Source: Trichormus sp. ATA11-4-KO1 | GTDB taxonomy: Bacteria > Cyanobacteriota > Cyanobacteriia > Cyanobacteriales > Nostocaceae | Direction of reading: 5' to 3' | DNA length: 64,000 nucleotides | NCBI GenBank assembly: GCA_019358915.1 | Contig: JAHHIM010000055.1 | Coordinates: 320,001-384,000, forward strand | Shown: positions 15,587 through 23,903 of the stretch, piece by piece | How the letters are laid out: every line of letters begins with the position of its first letter | Position numbering within the stretch: position 1 is the first letter of the stretch | The notes under the pieces: model-generated | Databases searched by the model: none | What the model saw: the letters and a program-made list of their open reading frames with translations, nothing else | What the model was told of the DNA's origin: nothing | Made by a program: the position numbers and the translations under genes

Positions 15587-16438
15587 ATGTCAACTCCTGA
15601 TCGACCTTTTGCCAGTTATCACCTTTGGTCTTTAGTTGCCCCAGCTACAGGCCAAGAACGTTGGCATTGCCAGATGAGAAGGGGATTTATCAAAGCGCGT
15701 CAACATGAACCACAAGTTAAAGCACTCTTAGGTAAGGCCACTGCACCCCAGAGGATTGGTATACTCGCTCAAAAAGGTGTTTATGAATTCCATCATAATA
15801 GACATTTATTAAAGCAATCAGACGGTGTTGAACAAGTTGCACAGCTTCTAAAATTAGACAACTCCACCGAGCAAGTGCAACAACGTGTGCTGCAAATTTT
15901 ACAAAAATATCATGATGCTCCATTACTATTAGATAAAAACATCTTGCAATTAACTCCAGGGGATGAAGGCTTTCCCAAACCAATTTTTATTGAACAAGAA
16001 GATTATCGCTTCCGCTTATATGCAGCGATGGACTGCGTTTTTATTGAGTCTGATCACACTTTGCATATTTTAGATTTCAAAACTGGTAAATCTGCTTTTG
16101 ACCGACGACAGGCATTAGTTTATTTACTAGCTGCTCGTTATCTTTACCCTGGATTGCGCGCGGTGGCATCATTTTATAATCTAGAACTATGTAAAAAATC
16201 TGATTTAATTAGTATCAACAATAGCGAATTAGAATCTTTAAAATTTGACTTGGCAAATGTTGCCCACAAACACCAGTACGATTTGCAGAAATATCAAGAA
16301 AAAACTAGTAATTTCAGTAAAATATTTCCTCCTAATCCTGGGACTCACTGCCGTTTTTGTCCATTTAATTCAATTTGTGATTTTTCGGAAAAGGCATCTT
16401 ATTCACACCCACTGCCTAGTTTAAAAAATCATGGGTGA
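15587..16438 (+). CDS. PD-(D/E)XK nuclease of the Cas4/RecB-like type with a predicted Fe-S cluster
   Basis: MDCVF...ILDFKTG...QALVY motif; N-terminal Cys (WHCQMR) plus C-terminal CRFCPFNSIC. Confidence 0.85.
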   Translation: MSTPDRPFASYHLWSLVAPATGQERWHCQMRRGFIKARQHEPQVKALLGKATAPQRIGILAQKGVYEFHHNRHLLKQSDGVEQVAQLLKLDNSTEQVQQRVLQILQKYHDAPLLLDKNILQLTPGDEGFPKPIFIEQEDYRFRLYAAMDCVFIESDHTLHILDFKTGKSAFDRRQALVYLLAARYLYPGLRAVASFYNLELCKKSDLISINNSELESLKFDLANVAHKHQYDLQKYQEKTSNFSKIFPPNPGTHCRFCPFNSICDFSEKASYSHPLPSLKNHG

Positions 16439-16747
16439 GGGGAGTGAATCAAGCCCGGATAATTGCTGTTTCTAAGTGCTAATAAAACGTAATTTAGACG
16501 GTTATAAAAAGGCAAAAAGCTTGCTAGATATGAATTTTCTCAACTGGGAATTCCTAAGAAATCGTTACGATTGACCAAGAAGGAAGAAGTTTGGAGTCAG
16601 GAGTCAGAAGGATGAATTTGGATGGGGATTATCCTTCTTGCGTCTTCTCTCTGACTTCTGACTTCGTTGATTGAGAATCGGCAAAAAAGTCACCAAAAAC
16701 GCCGAGACTAAGAATATCTCAGGATATTATCTTTAGACTGGGTAGTA

Positions 16748-16782
16748 AGGCGATTGCCAGAATAATTCGCTAGCAATTGCCT
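16748..16782 (-). terminator. Stem-loop just after the stop of ORF 16790-17029
   Basis: AGGCGATTGCCAG-N9-CTAGCAATTGCCT, an imperfect inverted repeat. Confidence 0.5.
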
Positions 16783-16789
16783 CTTCAAA

Positions 16790-17029
16790 CTATTTGGTCT
16801 TAGGGTCGCCCATTTTTCTCCACTCCCGCAGAAGATACAGTGCAGCTACAAGCACTTGATGTAAGCGCTTGGCCAAGACAGTCAGCACCATAAGCGCAAG
16901 TAACCAATTAGGTTGATGTACTAAAGGCAATACAGGTGGAGAAAATTTTGATGTGGGTAGAGGAGAAACAGTTGGGTGATTGACCTCAGTGGAATAGTGC
17001 AAGATTGTAGAAGTTAAAATGGTTTGCAT
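16790..17029 (-). CDS. Small hypothetical protein with a hydrophobic C-terminal helix
   Basis: GGAG SD about 8 nt upstream of the ATG, a downstream hairpin, a Pro-rich N-terminal half and a hydrophobic WLLALMVLTVLA segment. Confidence 0.6.
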   Translation of the reverse strand: MQTILTSTILHYSTEVNHPTVSPLPTSKFSPPVLPLVHQPNWLLALMVLTVLAKRLHQVLVAALYLLREWRKMGDPKTK

Positions 17030-17148
17030 GGGGCAGTCTCCATTTGTTTTGAAACTGCTTTCATCATCAAATTTCTAAACAATTCAAAAGCCCCCTGTTG
17101 GTATAGGGAAGGTATAAAGTTGTTTTTTTTCTTTTGCAAGTCTAAGCT

Positions 17149-18543
17149 ATGGAGTGGGTTGAGTTCCTTCGCAGTATTGCTATCAAACAGGAATTAAGTG
17201 ACGACTTAATTGAGACTTTGGTGATTCGGTTCAACGCTCGAAGTTCAGATAAATCTGATGCTAACTTGGCGCAGGAACTCAATATATCTGAAGTTGCCTT
17301 CAAAAAGCGCATGGCTGAAATTTATGAAGCTTTCAAGCCAATTTGCCCAGAGTTAGCAGATTTCATCGCTCGTGGAAAACGAGAGAAATTACGAGCTTGC
17401 TTGTGGAAACAGTTTGAGGCGCAGGATAGTTTAAAAGGGGCTGCACCGCCTAGTAACCTCCAACGACGGGGTATCCAAAATCCGCAAAACTTCGTCGGGC
17501 GAGAGCAGGAATTAGAGCAGATACATAGCCAACTTAAACAAGGCAATCAACTAGCTATCTCCGCTATCGCTGGGATGGGAGGTATAGGTAAGACCGAGTT
17601 GGCAATTCAGTACGCTAGAAAGTATGAACAGCATTATTCTGGCGGGATTTGTTGGCTGTATGCCAGAAAAGATGACTATGTTAAAACTCAAGCTGATATT
17701 AGAACTCAAATTGTGCTTTATGCAGTGGTGCAGCTGGGATTGAAAATTCCCGATGAGTTGGAACTTCCAGAGCAGGTTGCTTTCTGTTGGCGGCATTGGC
17801 CAACAGGTGATGTTTTAGTTGTGCTGGATGACGTCACGAATTATGGTGATGTTCGTCCTTACTTGCCGCCTGCATCTCAAAGGTTCAAAGTCATAATGAC
17901 AACTCGTTTAAAATTTGATTCCTCTGTTCAAACGATTTCTTTGAGTGTTTTGCAACCCCATCAATCATTGAAATTATTAGGGTTAATACTGGAGGAGCAG
18001 AAACGCTTAGAGGATGAACTCAGTATTGCATCGAGTTTGTGTGAATGGTTAGGAAATTTGCCTTTGGGGTTGGAACTGGTAGGGCATTATCTAGCGTTGG
18101 AGCGCGATTTTTCGTTAGCTGAAATTTTGTTTCGACTCCAGCAAAAAGCAAAGCAACGGCAAGTTCTAAAAGATAGAGCGCTGACTCGCACAGCAGAAGA
18201 TGAAGGGACTTGGGTAATGACAGCAGAGCGAGGCGTTGAAGCGGCATTTGAATTGAGTTGGGAGGTTTTAGATTATAATAGTCAGCATTTGGCTAAGTTA
18301 CTTAGTCTGTTTGCATTGGCTCCCATTCCTTGGGAATTAGTAGAGCAGGTTAAACAACAGCATTATGAGATGTATCCCGAAAATGGGGTTTTTAACTCCG
18401 AAGAGTTGAGAGAAGCCAAACGAAAGCTGCTACGGTTACATTTAGTTCAGCAGGAAAGCCGCACAACCTACCTTTTGCATTCACTGATTAGGGAATTTTT
18501 CAGGAGTAAGTTGGAGGGAACAGAGTATGACGGTGCGGGTTGA
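17149..18543 (+). CDS. HTH + NB-ARC (STAND) NTPase, NLR-like, with no fused sensor repeats
   Basis: N-terminal HTH-like DANLAQELNISEVAFKKRM; FVGRE, Walker A GMGGIGKT, Walker B VVLDDV, TTR, GNLPLGL, LHSLIREF. Confidence 0.92.
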   Translation: MEWVEFLRSIAIKQELSDDLIETLVIRFNARSSDKSDANLAQELNISEVAFKKRMAEIYEAFKPICPELADFIARGKREKLRACLWKQFEAQDSLKGAAPPSNLQRRGIQNPQNFVGREQELEQIHSQLKQGNQLAISAIAGMGGIGKTELAIQYARKYEQHYSGGICWLYARKDDYVKTQADIRTQIVLYAVVQLGLKIPDELELPEQVAFCWRHWPTGDVLVVLDDVTNYGDVRPYLPPASQRFKVIMTTRLKFDSSVQTISLSVLQPHQSLKLLGLILEEQKRLEDELSIASSLCEWLGNLPLGLELVGHYLALERDFSLAEILFRLQQKAKQRQVLKDRALTRTAEDEGTWVMTAERGVEAAFELSWEVLDYNSQHLAKLLSLFALAPIPWELVEQVKQQHYEMYPENGVFNSEELREAKRKLLRLHLVQQESRTTYLLHSLIREFFRSKLEGTEYDGAG

Positions 18544-20080
18544 AGTTAAACAAAATACCGAGGCAGAGCAGCTAAAAATGGCTTTTTGTCGGGTGATGGG
18601 AACATTGGGGAAACAGATTGTTGCAACCACGCCTACTATCTCCATGTCGTTCTCCATACTTGAGCAAGTTAAGCCTGTGATTCCGCATCTGATAGAAGCA
18701 GCAACGACTTTGGAACCTTGGTTGACAACGGAAGACTTGATTGCATCCACCACAAGTATTGCTCGATTCTATCGAGGACAGATTGCTTATACCGAGGCAG
18801 AATGCTGGTATGAGCGTTGTTGGGAAATGACGAAAACTCGTTTAGGCGAAAAACATCCTTTTGTAGCAACTGCCCTCAACAATCTAGCAAGACTCTACCA
18901 ATCGCAAGGACGCTACCGAGAAGCCGAATCTTTATTTTTGCAATCGGTAGACATTGGACAAGAACAGCTTGGGGACGATCATCCCGAAGTAGCAAGGTCT
19001 CTCAACAATCTGGGACAACTCTACAGTGACCAAGGGCGCGACAATGAGGCCGAACCACTCCTAGAGCGCTCATTGAAAATTTGGCGGCATTACTACGGTG
19101 ATGACCATCCTCACGTGGCGACTGCCGTCCACAATTTGGCACAAGTTTATAAATCGCAAAGACGTTACAGCGAAGCTGAAACCCTCTATCAGTTATCTCT
19201 GGAAATAACCCGAAGAGAATTTGGTAGTAATCATCCTTTAGTGGCAAGTCTCCTCAGCTCTTTGGCAACGCTCTGCTATGCACAAAATCGCTATAGTGAT
19301 GCGGAAACTTTCTATCAGTTATCCCTGAAAATTGATCAAGATCACTACGGAAACGATCATCCTGAAGTAGCAACTGACCTCAGTAACTTGGCATCGCTTT
19401 ACTCTTCACAAGGACGTTACAGTGATGCTGAACCTCTCTTCCAGCAAGCATTAGATATTAAACGCCGAAAATTAGGAGATAATCATCCCCAAGTTGCGAT
19501 AAGCTTTCATAATTTAGCAGCGCTTTACTCTTCACAGGGACGTTACAGTGATGCTGAAACTCTCTACCTACAAGCATTAGATATTCGGCGACAAACACTC
19601 GGAGACAAGCATCCCCAGGTGGTAATGAGCCTCCACGAACTGGCAATATTCTACCAATCTAAAGGACAAGGAATACTCGACTTTCAAAGACGAGCTATCC
19701 TTAACGATTTGGCAGCGCTTTGTAATTCACTAAACCTTTGTAGTGATGCGGAAATCTTCTATCAATTACTGCTGAAAATCTACCGAGACCATTACGGTGA
19801 TGACCATCCTGAAGTAGCAGTTGACCTCTACAATTTAGGACTACTTTACCAATCACAAGAACGTTTCGGAGATGCTGAGGCTTTTTATCTGCAAGCATTA
19901 GAAATTTGGCAACAAAAACTAGACGATGATGATCCACGAATAGCAATCAGCCTGCACAACCTTGCAGTACTCTACTATCTTCAAGAGCGTTATGACGATG
20001 CTGAAGCTCTATTTAAGCAATCACTGAATATTTCAGAAGGAAAATTTAACAACAACTCCCTTAATTCACTGGAGTCCTAA
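18527..20080 (+). CDS. Tetratricopeptide repeat protein (42-aa kinesin-light-chain-type TPRs)
   Basis: Repeated HPxVAxxLNNLAxLYxSQGRYSxAExLY; GGAGG SD before the ATG; 17-nt overlap with the NB-ARC gene. Confidence 0.92.
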   Translation: MTVRVEVKQNTEAEQLKMAFCRVMGTLGKQIVATTPTISMSFSILEQVKPVIPHLIEAATTLEPWLTTEDLIASTTSIARFYRGQIAYTEAECWYERCWEMTKTRLGEKHPFVATALNNLARLYQSQGRYREAESLFLQSVDIGQEQLGDDHPEVARSLNNLGQLYSDQGRDNEAEPLLERSLKIWRHYYGDDHPHVATAVHNLAQVYKSQRRYSEAETLYQLSLEITRREFGSNHPLVASLLSSLATLCYAQNRYSDAETFYQLSLKIDQDHYGNDHPEVATDLSNLASLYSSQGRYSDAEPLFQQALDIKRRKLGDNHPQVAISFHNLAALYSSQGRYSDAETLYLQALDIRRQTLGDKHPQVVMSLHELAIFYQSKGQGILDFQRRAILNDLAALCNSLNLCSDAEIFYQLLLKIYRDHYGDDHPEVAVDLYNLGLLYQSQERFGDAEAFYLQALEIWQQKLDDDDPRIAISLHNLAVLYYLQERYDDAEALFKQSLNISEGKFNNNSLNSLES

Positions 20081-20085
20081 GTAAT

Positions 20086-21219
20086 ATGACAGAACCCCAC
20101 CATACACTAGAGCAGCAAAAGAGAGTAACAGAGCTTTGGATGCGTTCGCTAGAAAATCAACTCCGGCAGCAAAGTGTCGATGATGCGAGTATTATCCAGA
20201 AATTCAACGAAATGGCAGAAGCTTTCTGTTTACAAGGGAAAAACTTGCAAGCCGAAGCTTTATGGGTGCGCTCCCTTGATGTTGCTCAACGCTGTTATGA
20301 AGACAACAAGCTAGTGATCGGATTTACTCTCAAAAGGTTGGTGGCGTTTTACCGTTCGCAACAGCGTTACAGTGAGACTGAACCTCTTTTGAAACAATCA
20401 TTGCAGATTTGGCAACATTTGTTTGGCAATGAGCATCCTTTAGTAGCAACCAACCTTAATGATTTAGCTGCGGTTTACCACCGACAGGGACGTTACAGCG
20501 AAGCTGAAAATTTTTATCTCCAAGCAATACCACTTCTATTGAACAAACTAAAAAACGAACATCCTGATACCCAAAACGCTTTGCAAAACTTTCGGCATCT
20601 CTTAAAGCAAGCCGTGCAAGAAAATAGAGTTGCCGAACTCTCTAATCATCCGTTCACGCAGTCGGCACTTGAGAAAGAATTATTAGACTTTCAAGAACGG
20701 CAACCCAACGAGAGACGTACCTTGGTTGTAACTGAACAAGATATTGAGGATCTCAGAAAGCTTACCCTGTCACAAGGAAAGAATACGGGAAATGCTCTCT
20801 TCTGGGTGCAACTGGTAGAAAAAAACCTTCGTCAACAGGGTGCTGACCATCTAAGCGTTGCTAAGGAGCTTAACAATGAGGCAAAAGTCTGCCGTTCCCA
20901 AGGAAAGAACCTGGAAGCCGAAGCCCTTTGGCAGCGATCGCTGGAAATTTACCAACAGCATCTTAACAATGCAGATCCCTATCTGGGAGTAATCCTCAAT
21001 AATTTAGCATCATTTTACCTTTCACAAAAGCGCTACAGTGAAGCCGAATCGCTCTTTCTAGAAGCTATATCCATCCTAATAAAGACACTAGGAAACGATC
21101 ACTCTACCACCGTATCCGTTTGGGAAAACTTCGCTGTACTGTTAGGACTAGTTCAGCATGAAAACCGAGTTGCTGAACTTTCCAACCACCCAATCACGCA
21201 GGCGTTACTTCCTCATTAG
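20086..21219 (+). CDS. Tetratricopeptide repeat protein with an internal two-module duplication
   Basis: TPR motifs; QGKNLxAEALWxRSL and ENRVAELSNHPxTQ each occur twice. Confidence 0.88.
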   Translation: MTEPHHTLEQQKRVTELWMRSLENQLRQQSVDDASIIQKFNEMAEAFCLQGKNLQAEALWVRSLDVAQRCYEDNKLVIGFTLKRLVAFYRSQQRYSETEPLLKQSLQIWQHLFGNEHPLVATNLNDLAAVYHRQGRYSEAENFYLQAIPLLLNKLKNEHPDTQNALQNFRHLLKQAVQENRVAELSNHPFTQSALEKELLDFQERQPNERRTLVVTEQDIEDLRKLTLSQGKNTGNALFWVQLVEKNLRQQGADHLSVAKELNNEAKVCRSQGKNLEAEALWQRSLEIYQQHLNNADPYLGVILNNLASFYLSQKRYSEAESLFLEAISILIKTLGNDHSTTVSVWENFAVLLGLVQHENRVAELSNHPITQALLPH

Positions 21220-21374
21220 CGATCGCCAAAAAATCTGGCTTTTTTCACTATCGGTAGACATAGCCGACTAAATCACGTTAATAAACACATTATTTTAGCT
21301 TTTTGGGAAACGACCAAGGGTTGATTGTGAGCAGTTATCAGTATCCAGAAAACTGACTACTGATAACTGCATAA

Positions 21375-23903
21375 TTACACCTCAGCAGGTTGCTGTTCTT
21401 GTTGTCGTTCCACAAACGCTTGAACACGGGAGCGATAGTTTCTCAAAGTCTCATCTACCCAGTCGCGATCGTTGCTATTAGCATACAAATGTACTAAAGG
21501 CTCACTGGCATCTGGTAAAACTAACAACCAACTATCATCGTAGGGTTGGCAAATTTTCACCCCATCGATTAACTCTAAGTTTTGGGCTGGGTGGGTTTCC
21601 ACTAAGTAACGCATCAGCGCGCCCTTAGCTGTCCAAGGACAACGGACTGTATAAGCTTTATGAACCACACGGGGCAATTCTGAACGGGCTGTAGCCAGCG
21701 ATCGCTCCTGAATAGTCAGCATCTCAATGAGCTTGGCAATACAGAACATAGAATCAAATCCCGGATGCAACTGCGGGAAAATAAAACCAGTTTCGCCACT
21801 ACCTCCTAAAACTACATTGGGATTTTTCTGAGAAGCTTCCATCAAGGCTGTAGGATTGGCTTTAGTACGAATTACCCTACCATCGTGGCGGCGAGCAACT
21901 TGTTCCACTGCACTGGAAGCGTGAACTGGGACAACTACCGTACCTCTGGGGTTGGATGTCAATATCATGTCTACCATCAGTGCTGTTAAGGTTTCTCCCC
22001 GGATAGGGTAGCCTGATTCATCAACTAAGATTAGCTGTTCCCCATTAGCTGATACTTGCACACCAAAGTTAGCTTTTAACGCCTCCACTACATGACCTAG
22101 TTGAGTTAGCAGTCCTTCGCGGTCAGTGGTGGACATAGCAGTTTTATTTACACTGGCATTCAACACCACCGCATCAGCACCAAATTTATCTAACATGAGC
22201 GGTAGAACTGCCCCAGACACAGCATAAACATAGTCAATTACCACTTTTGCCCGGCTGTTGCGCAGAGTATCAACATTTAACAGCTTTTCAAAGGCAGTGC
22301 AGTAACGGTCAATTACTTGGCTAGGGTAAGAAACATCGCCAACTTCATGAATTTGCGATCGCCGCATATCTTCTTTAAAGTAAGCACCCTCAATTTTCTT
22401 TTCTAGGGCTTTGGTGATGTTAATACCCTTGGCATCCATAAATTCAATCAGGATATAGTCAGGGCGATCTGGGTGTACCCGCACATGGATGCCGCCAGCT
22501 ACTGACATTGTGGGTATCACTGTCCGCGCTATGGGAATAGCTGTTGCATCCAGGTTTTGAATATCAACACCTACTGACATCAAACCAGCAATTAATGACC
22601 GGGTAACCATACGAGAAATATTACGCTGGTCACGGGAGACAGTTACCTTAGAACCGGGTTTCAAAGTAGAACCATAAGCGGCTCCCAATTTCACAGCAAA
22701 CTCTGGGGTAATGTCAATATTGGCTAAACCTTGGACACCACGTTGCCCAAATAAATTTCTTTGGGCAGTGTTACCCCAAATCAAATTAATGTTTAAAATT
22801 GCACCAGACTCAATTTTCTTACTAGGCCAAACGCGGACGTTGGGGCTAATTTGGGCTTCTTCTCCCACAGTGGAAAGCGAACCAACTACAGATGCTTCTA
22901 ATACATGAGCGCGACGATCTACACGGGTACCACGAGAAATCACGCAAGCACTTAAATGGGCTTCATCCCCAATAATTGACCCATTCCACAAAATCGGCCG
23001 CTTCAAGTTAGCATCAGCGCCAATAGTGACATTATCCCCAATAACAGTTCCCCCCTCAATCTGCACTCTTGCCCCAATGCGGCAATTGTCACCAATAACT
23101 GCTGGAGTTTCAATAGTAGCTGTGGGGTCAATAAAAGTATTTTGGCCTATCCATAACCCATTAGCAACTTCTTTATAAGCAAAGTCAAGTTTTACTTTAC
23201 GATCCAAAGCATCATATTGAGCTTCACGATAAGCATCTAAGTGACCAACATCGCACCAGTAACCTTGGGCAATGTAACCGTACATTGGTTCACCTTTTGC
23301 CAGTAATAAGGGAAATAAGTCTTTAGAAAAGTCGCTTTCAGTGTTAGATGGCAAATATTCCAAAACTTCTGGTTCGAGAATATAAATGCCAGTGTTGACG
23401 GTATCGGAAAAAATTTCACTAGTGGAAGGTTTTTCTAAAAAGCGATTAATATTTCCTTGTTCGTCGGTAATCACCACTCCAAATTCAACCGGGTTGGGAA
23501 CCCTAGTTAACACCAAAGTAGCTTTTGATTGTTTTTGTTTGTGAAATTCGATTGCAGCTTTCAGGTCGAAATCTGTGATACTATCGCCGCTAATCACTAA
23601 AAACGTTTCGTCAAGGAGTTCGGCAATATTTTTCACACAGCCTGCCGTGCCTAACGGCTGGTCTTCTTCGACCGCATAGGTCATCTGGATGCCAAAATCG
23701 CTACCATCTTGAAAGTAATCTCGCAGGACATCTGGTAAATAATGCAATGTCGCAATAATTTCTGTAATTTGATGTCGTTTGAGCAGATTGATGATATGTT
23801 CGGCAATTGGTCTATTTAAAATGGGAACCATCGGTTTGGGCAGATCACAAGTTAATGGGCGAAGTCGCGTTCCCGAACCGCCTGCCATCAGTACTGCACG
23901 CAT
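21375..23903 (-). CDS. Mannose-1-phosphate guanylyltransferase / phosphomannomutase-like fusion
   Basis: [13 protein letters not shown] nucleotidyltransferase motif, left-handed beta-helix hexapeptides, C-terminal PGM/PMM-like domains. Confidence 0.93.

Follow-up and report, generated by a model that had tools for sequence, protein, structure and literature searches.

A probable NLR-like STAND receptor of cyanobacteria encoded as an NB-ARC hub and separate arm-TPR sensor genes

The DNA considered here is a 64,000-nucleotide stretch of the genome of Trichormus sp. ATA11-4-KO1 (the window, G000:C55:320001-384000), a HIP1-rich cyanobacterial genome, in which three co-oriented genes, A, B and C, lie between a gene for a PD-(D/E)XK nuclease and a gene for an 842-residue protein, presumably a sugar-nucleotidyltransferase/mutase by its look. 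As listed in Table 1, A encodes the hub of a STAND protein without a sensor, B an arm followed by tetratricopeptide repeats (TPRs), and C a TPR protein without an arm; by Pfam, A is NB-ARC (E 2.7e-15) and B and C are TPR_12/TPR_10. An earlier note on this DNA had described an NB-ARC open reading frame (ORF) that stops while a linker-TPR ORF starts in another frame, behind a GGAGG and with a 17-nt overlap. The ORFs are as it described: B is read in +1 relative to A, the overlap is 17 nt, the GGAGG occupies 18513-18517, 9 nt ahead of the B start codon, and the stop of A is placed at the boundary between the winged-helix domain (WHD) and the arm.

Table 1. Features of the A-B-C locus and its surroundings, with coordinates in the window (HTH, helix-turn-helix; NBD, nucleotide-binding domain; HD1 and HD2, helical domains 1 and 2).
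Feature	Position	Strand	Description
Gene A, STAND hub without sensor	17149-18543	+	464 aa, C-terminal end LHSLIREFFRSKLEGTEYDGAG; Pfam NB-ARC
Parts of gene A	17149-18543	+	HTH-like domain 1-98; NBD; HD1; WHD with LH motif (H444)
Nucleotide motifs of gene A			Walker A GMGGIGKT 142-149; Walker B VLVVLDDV 222-229
WHD insertion, ~10 residues (A 403-412)	18355-18384	+	marks the split clade, lengthens the arm-docking helix
Coupling junction	18513-18543	+	GGAGG, B ATG at 18527, A stop; also sensor-gene exchange point
Gene B, putative lid and sensor	18527-20080	+	517 aa; arm (HD2, ~residues 1-85), then ~10 42-residue TPRs
Gene C, arm-less TPR protein	20086-21219	+	own GGAG at 20071-20074
Gene D, putative regulated output	16790-17029	-	79 aa; divergent from A
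Conserved intergenic motif	17098-17122	.	imperfect GGTATA direct repeat; candidate operator/promoter element
Left 7-bp direct repeat TAATAAA	16480-16486	.	cassette boundary; single copy at the empty site of G001
Right 7-bp direct repeat TAATAAA	21279-21285	.	cassette boundary

The AlphaFold2 (AF2) model of A is a complete nucleotide-binding oligomerization domain (NOD) with an N-terminal helical domain (pLDDT, the predicted local confidence, 86). It is closest by Foldseek to Apaf-1 and NRC proteins, with CED-4 chains also matching, and its best solved relative by sequence is AfsR (E 4e-21). The protein carries the marks of an AP-ATPase/NB-ARC STAND member, namely Walker A and B, a GxP-type motif in HD1 and an MHD-like histidine in the WHD; K148, D227, D228, P305 and H444 are invariant among 103 hubs. 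Residues 1-260 of B are modelled as an all-helical arm and a KLC-type TPR solenoid (pLDDT 94). The end of A and the start of B find abutting matches in five fused relatives (L002, L003, L004, L007, L008) and lie 34 nt apart in the window, and because of this extra length the junction is not a one-base indel. Reads at the junction, to which the earlier note had pointed, agree: a possible source run, which is not independent, gives a single contig across 17460-22000 with zero differences, and contigs of the independent run X2 span 18340-18517 and 18503-18800 at depth 3 without an indel and with stop and ATG kept, although one X2 contig reaches only 24 letters left of the B ATG. The earlier note had also looked to close single-ORF homologues as the sign of a frameshift; none of the longer, single-chain homologues of A exceeds 57% identity, and split ones reach 72, 77 and 96%. 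An assembly error or one-base frameshift, considered as a candidate explanation, was rejected on the contigs, the 34-nt spacing and these identities.

The break recurs in other genomes, where the earlier note had suggested looking for it. An exact motif scan returned 13 genome and 19 metagenome loci. Once the window's own record is set aside, 30 of the 31 other motif loci are split, with the stop 20-26 codons past the histidine, and one is fused; since the motif favours split hubs, 30/31 expresses recurrence and not the frequency of the split in the family, and three of the 30 duplicate another junction exactly. At 24 of the 30 junctions an ORF overlaps in the +1 frame, and at the other six a short vestige is found, with the arm gene further down. 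The hosts named are Microcystis, Nostoc, Stigonema, Dendronalium, Tychonema, Microcoleus, Spirulina and Adonisia. In addition, among the best 119 other homologues of A with 255-812 residues, 109 have their C-terminus no more than 32 residues from the WHD LH motif, and many end in KLEGExDV, a stretch whose DNA supplies the Shine-Dalgarno sequence (SD) and start codon of the gene that follows. Of 401 genomes in the phylum, 60 had the family at E 1e-100, four candidates being scored per genome, and among the 30 loci fetched only G000, G350 and G332 yielded confirmed split hubs of the clade. The split design is widespread but rare. At the locus of G332 (L065, on G332:C11) the genes on either side of the split-hub junction do not overlap, and the protein encoded ahead of the hub begins with a VMAP-type HTH-like part; the N-terminus of this hub differs from the others, and we take it to be XRE-like.

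Genes A, B and C are under purifying selection, with dN/dS of 0.13 for A against L051 and of 0.29 for B and 0.24 for C against L034. A set of 192 NB-ARC regions (133 split, 56 fused and three unclear) was used for trees, FastTree being run on 94 rows and IQ-TREE on 65, with near-duplicates thinned, unclear rows left out and the insertion and tail columns removed. In the IQ-TREE result all split hubs except L085 fall into one clade (SH-aLRT 98). The corresponding WHD segment has 21-24 residues in 42 of 43 split hubs, as against 13-14 in 38 of 48 fused proteins; L085, scored as split, yet outside the clade and without the insertion, is probably a separate truncation. The fused proteins that do bear the insertion mostly have long, irregular junctions, some with DV and QxTE-like remnants, a pattern that suggests re-fusion after a single split as the putative order of events. 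The earlier note preferred an evolved split to a frameshift, and the recurrence, the tree, the purifying selection and the start-codon swaps described below bear it out: the split is almost certainly evolved. Two further genes, the second gene of L040 (P0100) and that of L049, stand directly behind a split hub and consist of a degenerate arm start followed by a whole split-clade NB-ARC-arm-TPR; these are read as re-fused copies inserted at the sensor position. Six proteins (P0028, P0082, P0111, P0119, P0274 and P0287) hold a split-clade NB-ARC inside a larger protein with other N- and C-terminal parts, PNP in two of them, and without a TPR match in Pfam.

Each of the 30 split loci has one or more stand-alone genes in which the arm comes first and TPRs follow; two to four such genes are present in 19 of them, and the total is 59. 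Their arms follow the consensus M..VKQxTEAEQLKxAF...IPH, and arm identity within a locus averages 44% (28 pairs, alignment A3). In a 50% representative library the arm matched 611 proteins, and among the best 150 of these it is N-terminal (within the first 25 residues) without NB-ARC in 50, a few of which are fragments, follows NB-ARC in 97 and is otherwise placed in three. There is direct evidence for exchange of arm-TPR genes exactly at the start codon. In runs X8 and X9 identity to A is ~95% up to 18529, the end of the B ATG, after which the sequence passes into a different arm gene, while runs X3 and X6 hold B from 18587 onward behind another 5' end; the protein P0005 shares 96% identity with A and has another tail, and in L051 the hub is 77% identical to A and the arm only 46% identical to that of B. 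L034 matches 18473-21227 at 90% DNA identity, which comprises 54 nt of the hub and then intact B and C (517 and 377 aa); a second hub, which shares 56% identity with A, faces this B-C pair in head-to-head orientation. G770 has two stand-alone arm genes and a single split-type hub, all on the same contig. Several distal arm genes retain a remnant of the hub 3' end as their SD, and it follows from these remnants and the start-codon swaps that the conserved LHSLIREFF..KLE DNA likely serves as a recombination point.

No remote stand-alone arm gene was found in the window's own genome; arm matches distant from split hubs in five selected genomes (10 loci checked) proved to be internal to NB-ARC frames or fragmentary. 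A homologue search with B 1-120 gave one protein from 39 candidates and was too insensitive, and an exact look-up of the B protein gave no match, its called start possibly differing. The earlier note's multi-subunit STAND system with exchangeable sensor genes agrees with the recurrence, the tree, the selection and the swaps as far as B-type arm genes are concerned, but C, which lacks an arm, is for that reason not a second exchangeable sensor of the B kind. C consists of two 40%-identical halves, each with a capping motif at its end, and matches at 43% the C-terminal part of the single-chain protein P0122, whose arm-TPR is 53% identical to B and whose NB-ARC is only 45% identical to A. C is therefore likely a detached, capping end of the B repeat solenoid. 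A second break within the TPR array, with an arm gene followed by an arm-less TPR gene as for B and C, also occurs in L044, L050 and L058.

The modelling that the earlier note had proposed was run for A with B. For A 97-464 modelled with B 1-260 the score was 0.63, whereas the best of three controls reached 0.00; 116 of 157 solved complexes and two of 215 mismatched pairs attain the mark on this scale, and the halves of a split gene can pass it through likeness to solved single chains. Contact agreement between runs was at least 58% and the pLDDT of the partners at least 82. The predicted interface sets WHD residues 380-412, 440 and 455-457 against arm residues 12-27 and 50-62; it includes clade insertion residues 404-405, 408-409 and 412 and, on B, helix 1 (L16, K17, F20) and the IPH motif (P53, H54), where L16, K17, P53 and H54 are nearly invariant. 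It has been reported, in the portion of the PH0952 paper available (PMC6468293), that WHD helix H10 and the H9-H10 loop dock on the first two arm helices, and the predicted WHD-arm packing of A and B agrees with this arrangement. The model makes it likely that A and B form a physical complex.

Taken together, the locus probably encodes an NLR-like STAND protein split at the winged-helix/arm boundary, in which B docks on the hub A and holds it off until a ligand arrives. B would be made separately and dock in trans on A through the WHD-arm contacts that the model predicts. By analogy with MalT and PH0952, docked B would keep A closed, binding of a ligand to the arm-TPR part would free the arm, and the freed A would exchange ADP for ATP and oligomerize, so that its N-terminal module could deliver the output. 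Translational coupling may keep the hub and the first sensor in proportion, and C likely completes or caps the repeat array of B. The accessible part of the MalT paper (PMC4381067) describes an arm that toggles between closing the NOD and binding the inducer, and an isolated MalT arm-sensor that binds the inducer with a KD of 2.7 uM. A broader proposal, which is tentative and falls short of even, is that of a plug-in receptor: one hub, a library of separate arm-TPR detectors, a standard socket (the WHD insertion against LK..F and IPH), recombination at the start codon, sensors shared across hubs and independently swapped outputs. Under it, sensors would serve hubs only ~56% identical, as L034 suggests, and outputs would be exchanged independently among an HTH with a small membrane-active gene, amyloid-coupled enzymes and EAD4.

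Genes A to D belong to an accessory cassette. In G001, the only other genome of the genus compared, the flanks match at 99% and 96% and 16487-21278 is missing; the cassette measures 4.8 kb, and the 7-bp direct repeat bounds the part missing from G001. Matches at E 1e-40 exist in only four of 389 family genomes, namely G000, G770 (B-C), G772 (D only) and G034 (TPR, ~65%), which makes insertion in G000 the simpler reading for how the cassette arrived. Its GC content is 0.43 and that of the genome 0.42. The earlier note had found HIP1 scarce here; the two positions it gave, 20934 and 21219, are right and are the only ones here, but 24% of 1213 same-sized stretches of the genome have two or fewer, so depletion of HIP1 was dropped as an accessory sign and accessory status comes from the empty site in G001. 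An Rfam scan of 16400-21400 gave no match; the promoter scan found 5 sites against 7.8 expected, and terminator-like sites numbered 13 against 4.1 expected, mostly within ORFs. An imperfect inverted-repeat element, dispersed in numerous copies through G000 and G001, lies between the left repeat and D at 16570-16680. The PD-(D/E)XK nuclease gene at 15587-16438, with a PADLOC Aga_Cas4-like_Nuc match at E 1e-126, is present in G001 too and so belongs to the flank and not to the cassette.

Gene D, which the earlier note missed, encodes a protein with a proline-rich N-terminus and a hydrophobic helix, over which the 19-residue hydropathy peaks at 1.74 (from residue 43); its atlas score of 0.83 is uninformative. 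It is 56% identical to the L051 copy, with dN/dS 0.25, and 24 of 25 bases of the intergenic motif are identical in L051. Homologues of D in L093 and L094 also face the HTH-type N-terminus, and the intergenic motif is not obviously kept at these two loci. In G562 the HTH-type N-terminus sits on a fused NB-ARC-arm-TPR, and D and the HTH therefore move together independently of the split. The N-terminus of A has no Pfam match; an atlas score of 0.87 for HTH_VMAP-M9 is a lead only. HTH-driven transcription of D is a possible output here, at somewhat under an even chance.

The relatives point to other outputs. At 14 of 26 loci, read by eye, one short motif occurs both at the N-terminus of the hub and where the upstream gene ends, and the upstream genes with this motif encode PNP_UDP_1, CHAT or a protein of 145-157 aa; upstream partners of 137-165 aa have no meaningful Pfam match. 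In these relatives an amyloid motif likely activates the neighbouring effector, be it PNP, CHAT or a small helical protein. The shared amyloid motif of Bell/BASS pairs is absent from the window hub, whose N-terminus is HTH-like and which has no effector gene upstream in the same orientation; other hubs carry EAD4 or EAD10. In L034, L037 and L042 a hub without an N-terminal module lies ~90 nt behind a gene for 137-165 aa. PADLOC, applied to 100 neighbouring ORFs at 22 loci, gave TIR-, PNP-, CHAT- and E1-like matches in ~8 loci, a count made with no background control and hence no more than suggestive. One split locus with three sensors (L031, 904-2382 and flanks) lies among SEFIR-NB-ARC-TPR, PNP-STAND and E1-like genes, surroundings that are likely a defence island. 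The FxSxx-COOH TPR protein model NF040586 scored 127, 197 and 68 bits, below its curated cut-off of 300. An immune role of the system is slightly favoured, the case for an antiphage role is circumstantial, and the putative ligand class is most likely a foreign (phage) protein.

Several observations weigh against this interpretation of a split receptor with a role in immunity. In the complex, the confident contacts are WHD-arm only and include no NBD-arm or NBD-sensor contact of the kind that would explain autoinhibition; interface conservation is 0.63 against 0.52 at other arm positions, which is not significant (p 0.065). The fetching motif was derived from split hubs and hence biased to them, fused forms dominate in genomes, and the split clade itself also contains five fused rows and the long-branch fused L015, with further fused members beyond the IQ-TREE rows. 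The TPRs of B have a dN/dS of 0.30 against L034, which is no diversifying selection. G772 has a 68% copy of D, and no match to A lies within 1.5 kb of it. Core genes flank the cassette, and PADLOC, which the earlier note had named as a check, returned no family for A, Avs models included, and one generic TPR model for B.

Among the alternatives, a MalT/AfsR-like transcriptional regulator without a role in immunity, with TPRs that recognize a metabolite or an endogenous protein, is unlikely but is the one that fares best. The HTH-like N-terminus, the divergent target gene with its conserved intergenic motif, AfsR as the closest solved relative and a window cassette with no defence neighbours all agree with it, but the patchy accessory distribution, the fast sensor turnover and the PNP, CHAT, TIR and EAD4 partners within the same clade do not, and it bears on the role of the system and not on the split mechanism. 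It is known that CED-9 restrains the sensor-less CED-4, and B might analogously be a guard or inhibitor of a hub whose activity is constitutive in its absence and which fires once B is titrated or destroyed. On its own, A is a complete arm-less NOD with a CED-4 fold match, autoinhibition in MalT and PH0952 is exerted by the arm, and an arm gene lies within the fetched DNA at all 30 split motif loci; a pure inhibitor, however, needs neither 5-16 variable TPRs nor several divergent copies per hub. This explanation, which overlaps mechanically with a sensor role for B, is improbable. A programmed +1 ribosomal frameshift that joins the ORFs, with some single-chain receptor made, would account for the constant +1 overlap frame and the SD-like sequence just upstream, but the last sense codon varies (AGT, GCT, AAT, ACC, ACT, CGT, TAC, GAC, GGT and others) with no common slippery site, the genes of G332 do not overlap, distal arm genes have their own starts, and the conserved M..VKQxTE N-terminus exists only for independent initiation; it has very little probability. 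A decayed or mis-assembled single gene, which the predominance of single-chain members in genomes might suggest, is refuted by the recurrence, the clade structure, the dN/dS of 0.13-0.29 and the independent contigs, and has practically no probability left.

The preferred interpretation, a hub with B docking in trans, can be compared with known systems. AfsR (PDB 8k60/8jke), PH0952 (PDB 6mfv; PMC6468293) and MalT (PMC4381067) show, in the parts of these sources available, the same order of a DNA-binding N-terminus, NBD-HD-WHD, arm and TPR sensor. They are single chains, whereas here the arm and sensor are encoded apart from the hub, in many cases by several genes for one hub, and the split clade has in addition the WHD insertion and a new N-terminal motif of the arm. 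The canonical single-chain NLR has NOD, arm and sensor in one ORF, an arrangement that is absent here. Cyanobacterial single-chain NB-ARC-TPR proteins, including those of Bell/BASS-NLR pairs, belong to the same family at ~45-57% identity, and in many split hubs, too, a short motif recurs at the end of the gene upstream; membership in BASS is by resemblance only. The sections available of the Bell/BASS papers (10.1101/2020.01.06.895854; 10.1101/2024.11.07.622273) separate effector from NLR and not NOD from sensor. Avs proteins combine a STAND core with TPR-like sensors that bind phage proteins, in the same chain, according to the available portion of PMC13581612, and A has no PADLOC Avs match. 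The sensor clustering in that survey excluded clades without sensors of at least 400 aa, and in the same portion split proteins are mentioned only in the Avs7/Dsr1 methods.

Partial parallels exist. In the iSTAND2/TERNS3 MoxR-vWA systems of multicellular cyanobacteria, as far as the available part of PMC8195603 describes them, a separate adjacent gene supplies a helical linker and a variable C-terminal module, but there a vWA component is the protein that is split, and what is detached is an effector and not a STAND arm-sensor. The domains of the plant NLR Rx complement one another as separate polypeptides (cited in the part available of PMC3510248); that split is artificial and lies after ARC2, whereas the present one is natural and lies at the WHD/arm boundary. 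No account of a natural NOD/arm split was found in the literature searched, supplements aside; the clade might be listed in the 589-clade tables of PMC13581612 or in the bioRxiv supplements. A natural NLR-like STAND with detachable, exchangeable arm-sensor subunits is apparently undescribed in print. CED-4 is sensor-less like A and matches its fold. To our knowledge, CED-4 has no cognate arm-TPR array.

Activation models of STAND and NLR proteins assume that arm and sensor are tethered in cis, and a clade that acts in trans would make the arm-release step directly testable with mixed purified parts. It would also represent a bacterial route to many specificities per switch, functionally like the sensor/helper networks of plants and animals, with a sensor that has no ATPase. 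Surveys that look for a sensor in the same chain miss such receptors, and annotation presents their parts as NB-ARC and TPR proteins without relation to one another. Should the socket prove standard, the hub may further serve as a modular scaffold for engineered sensors.

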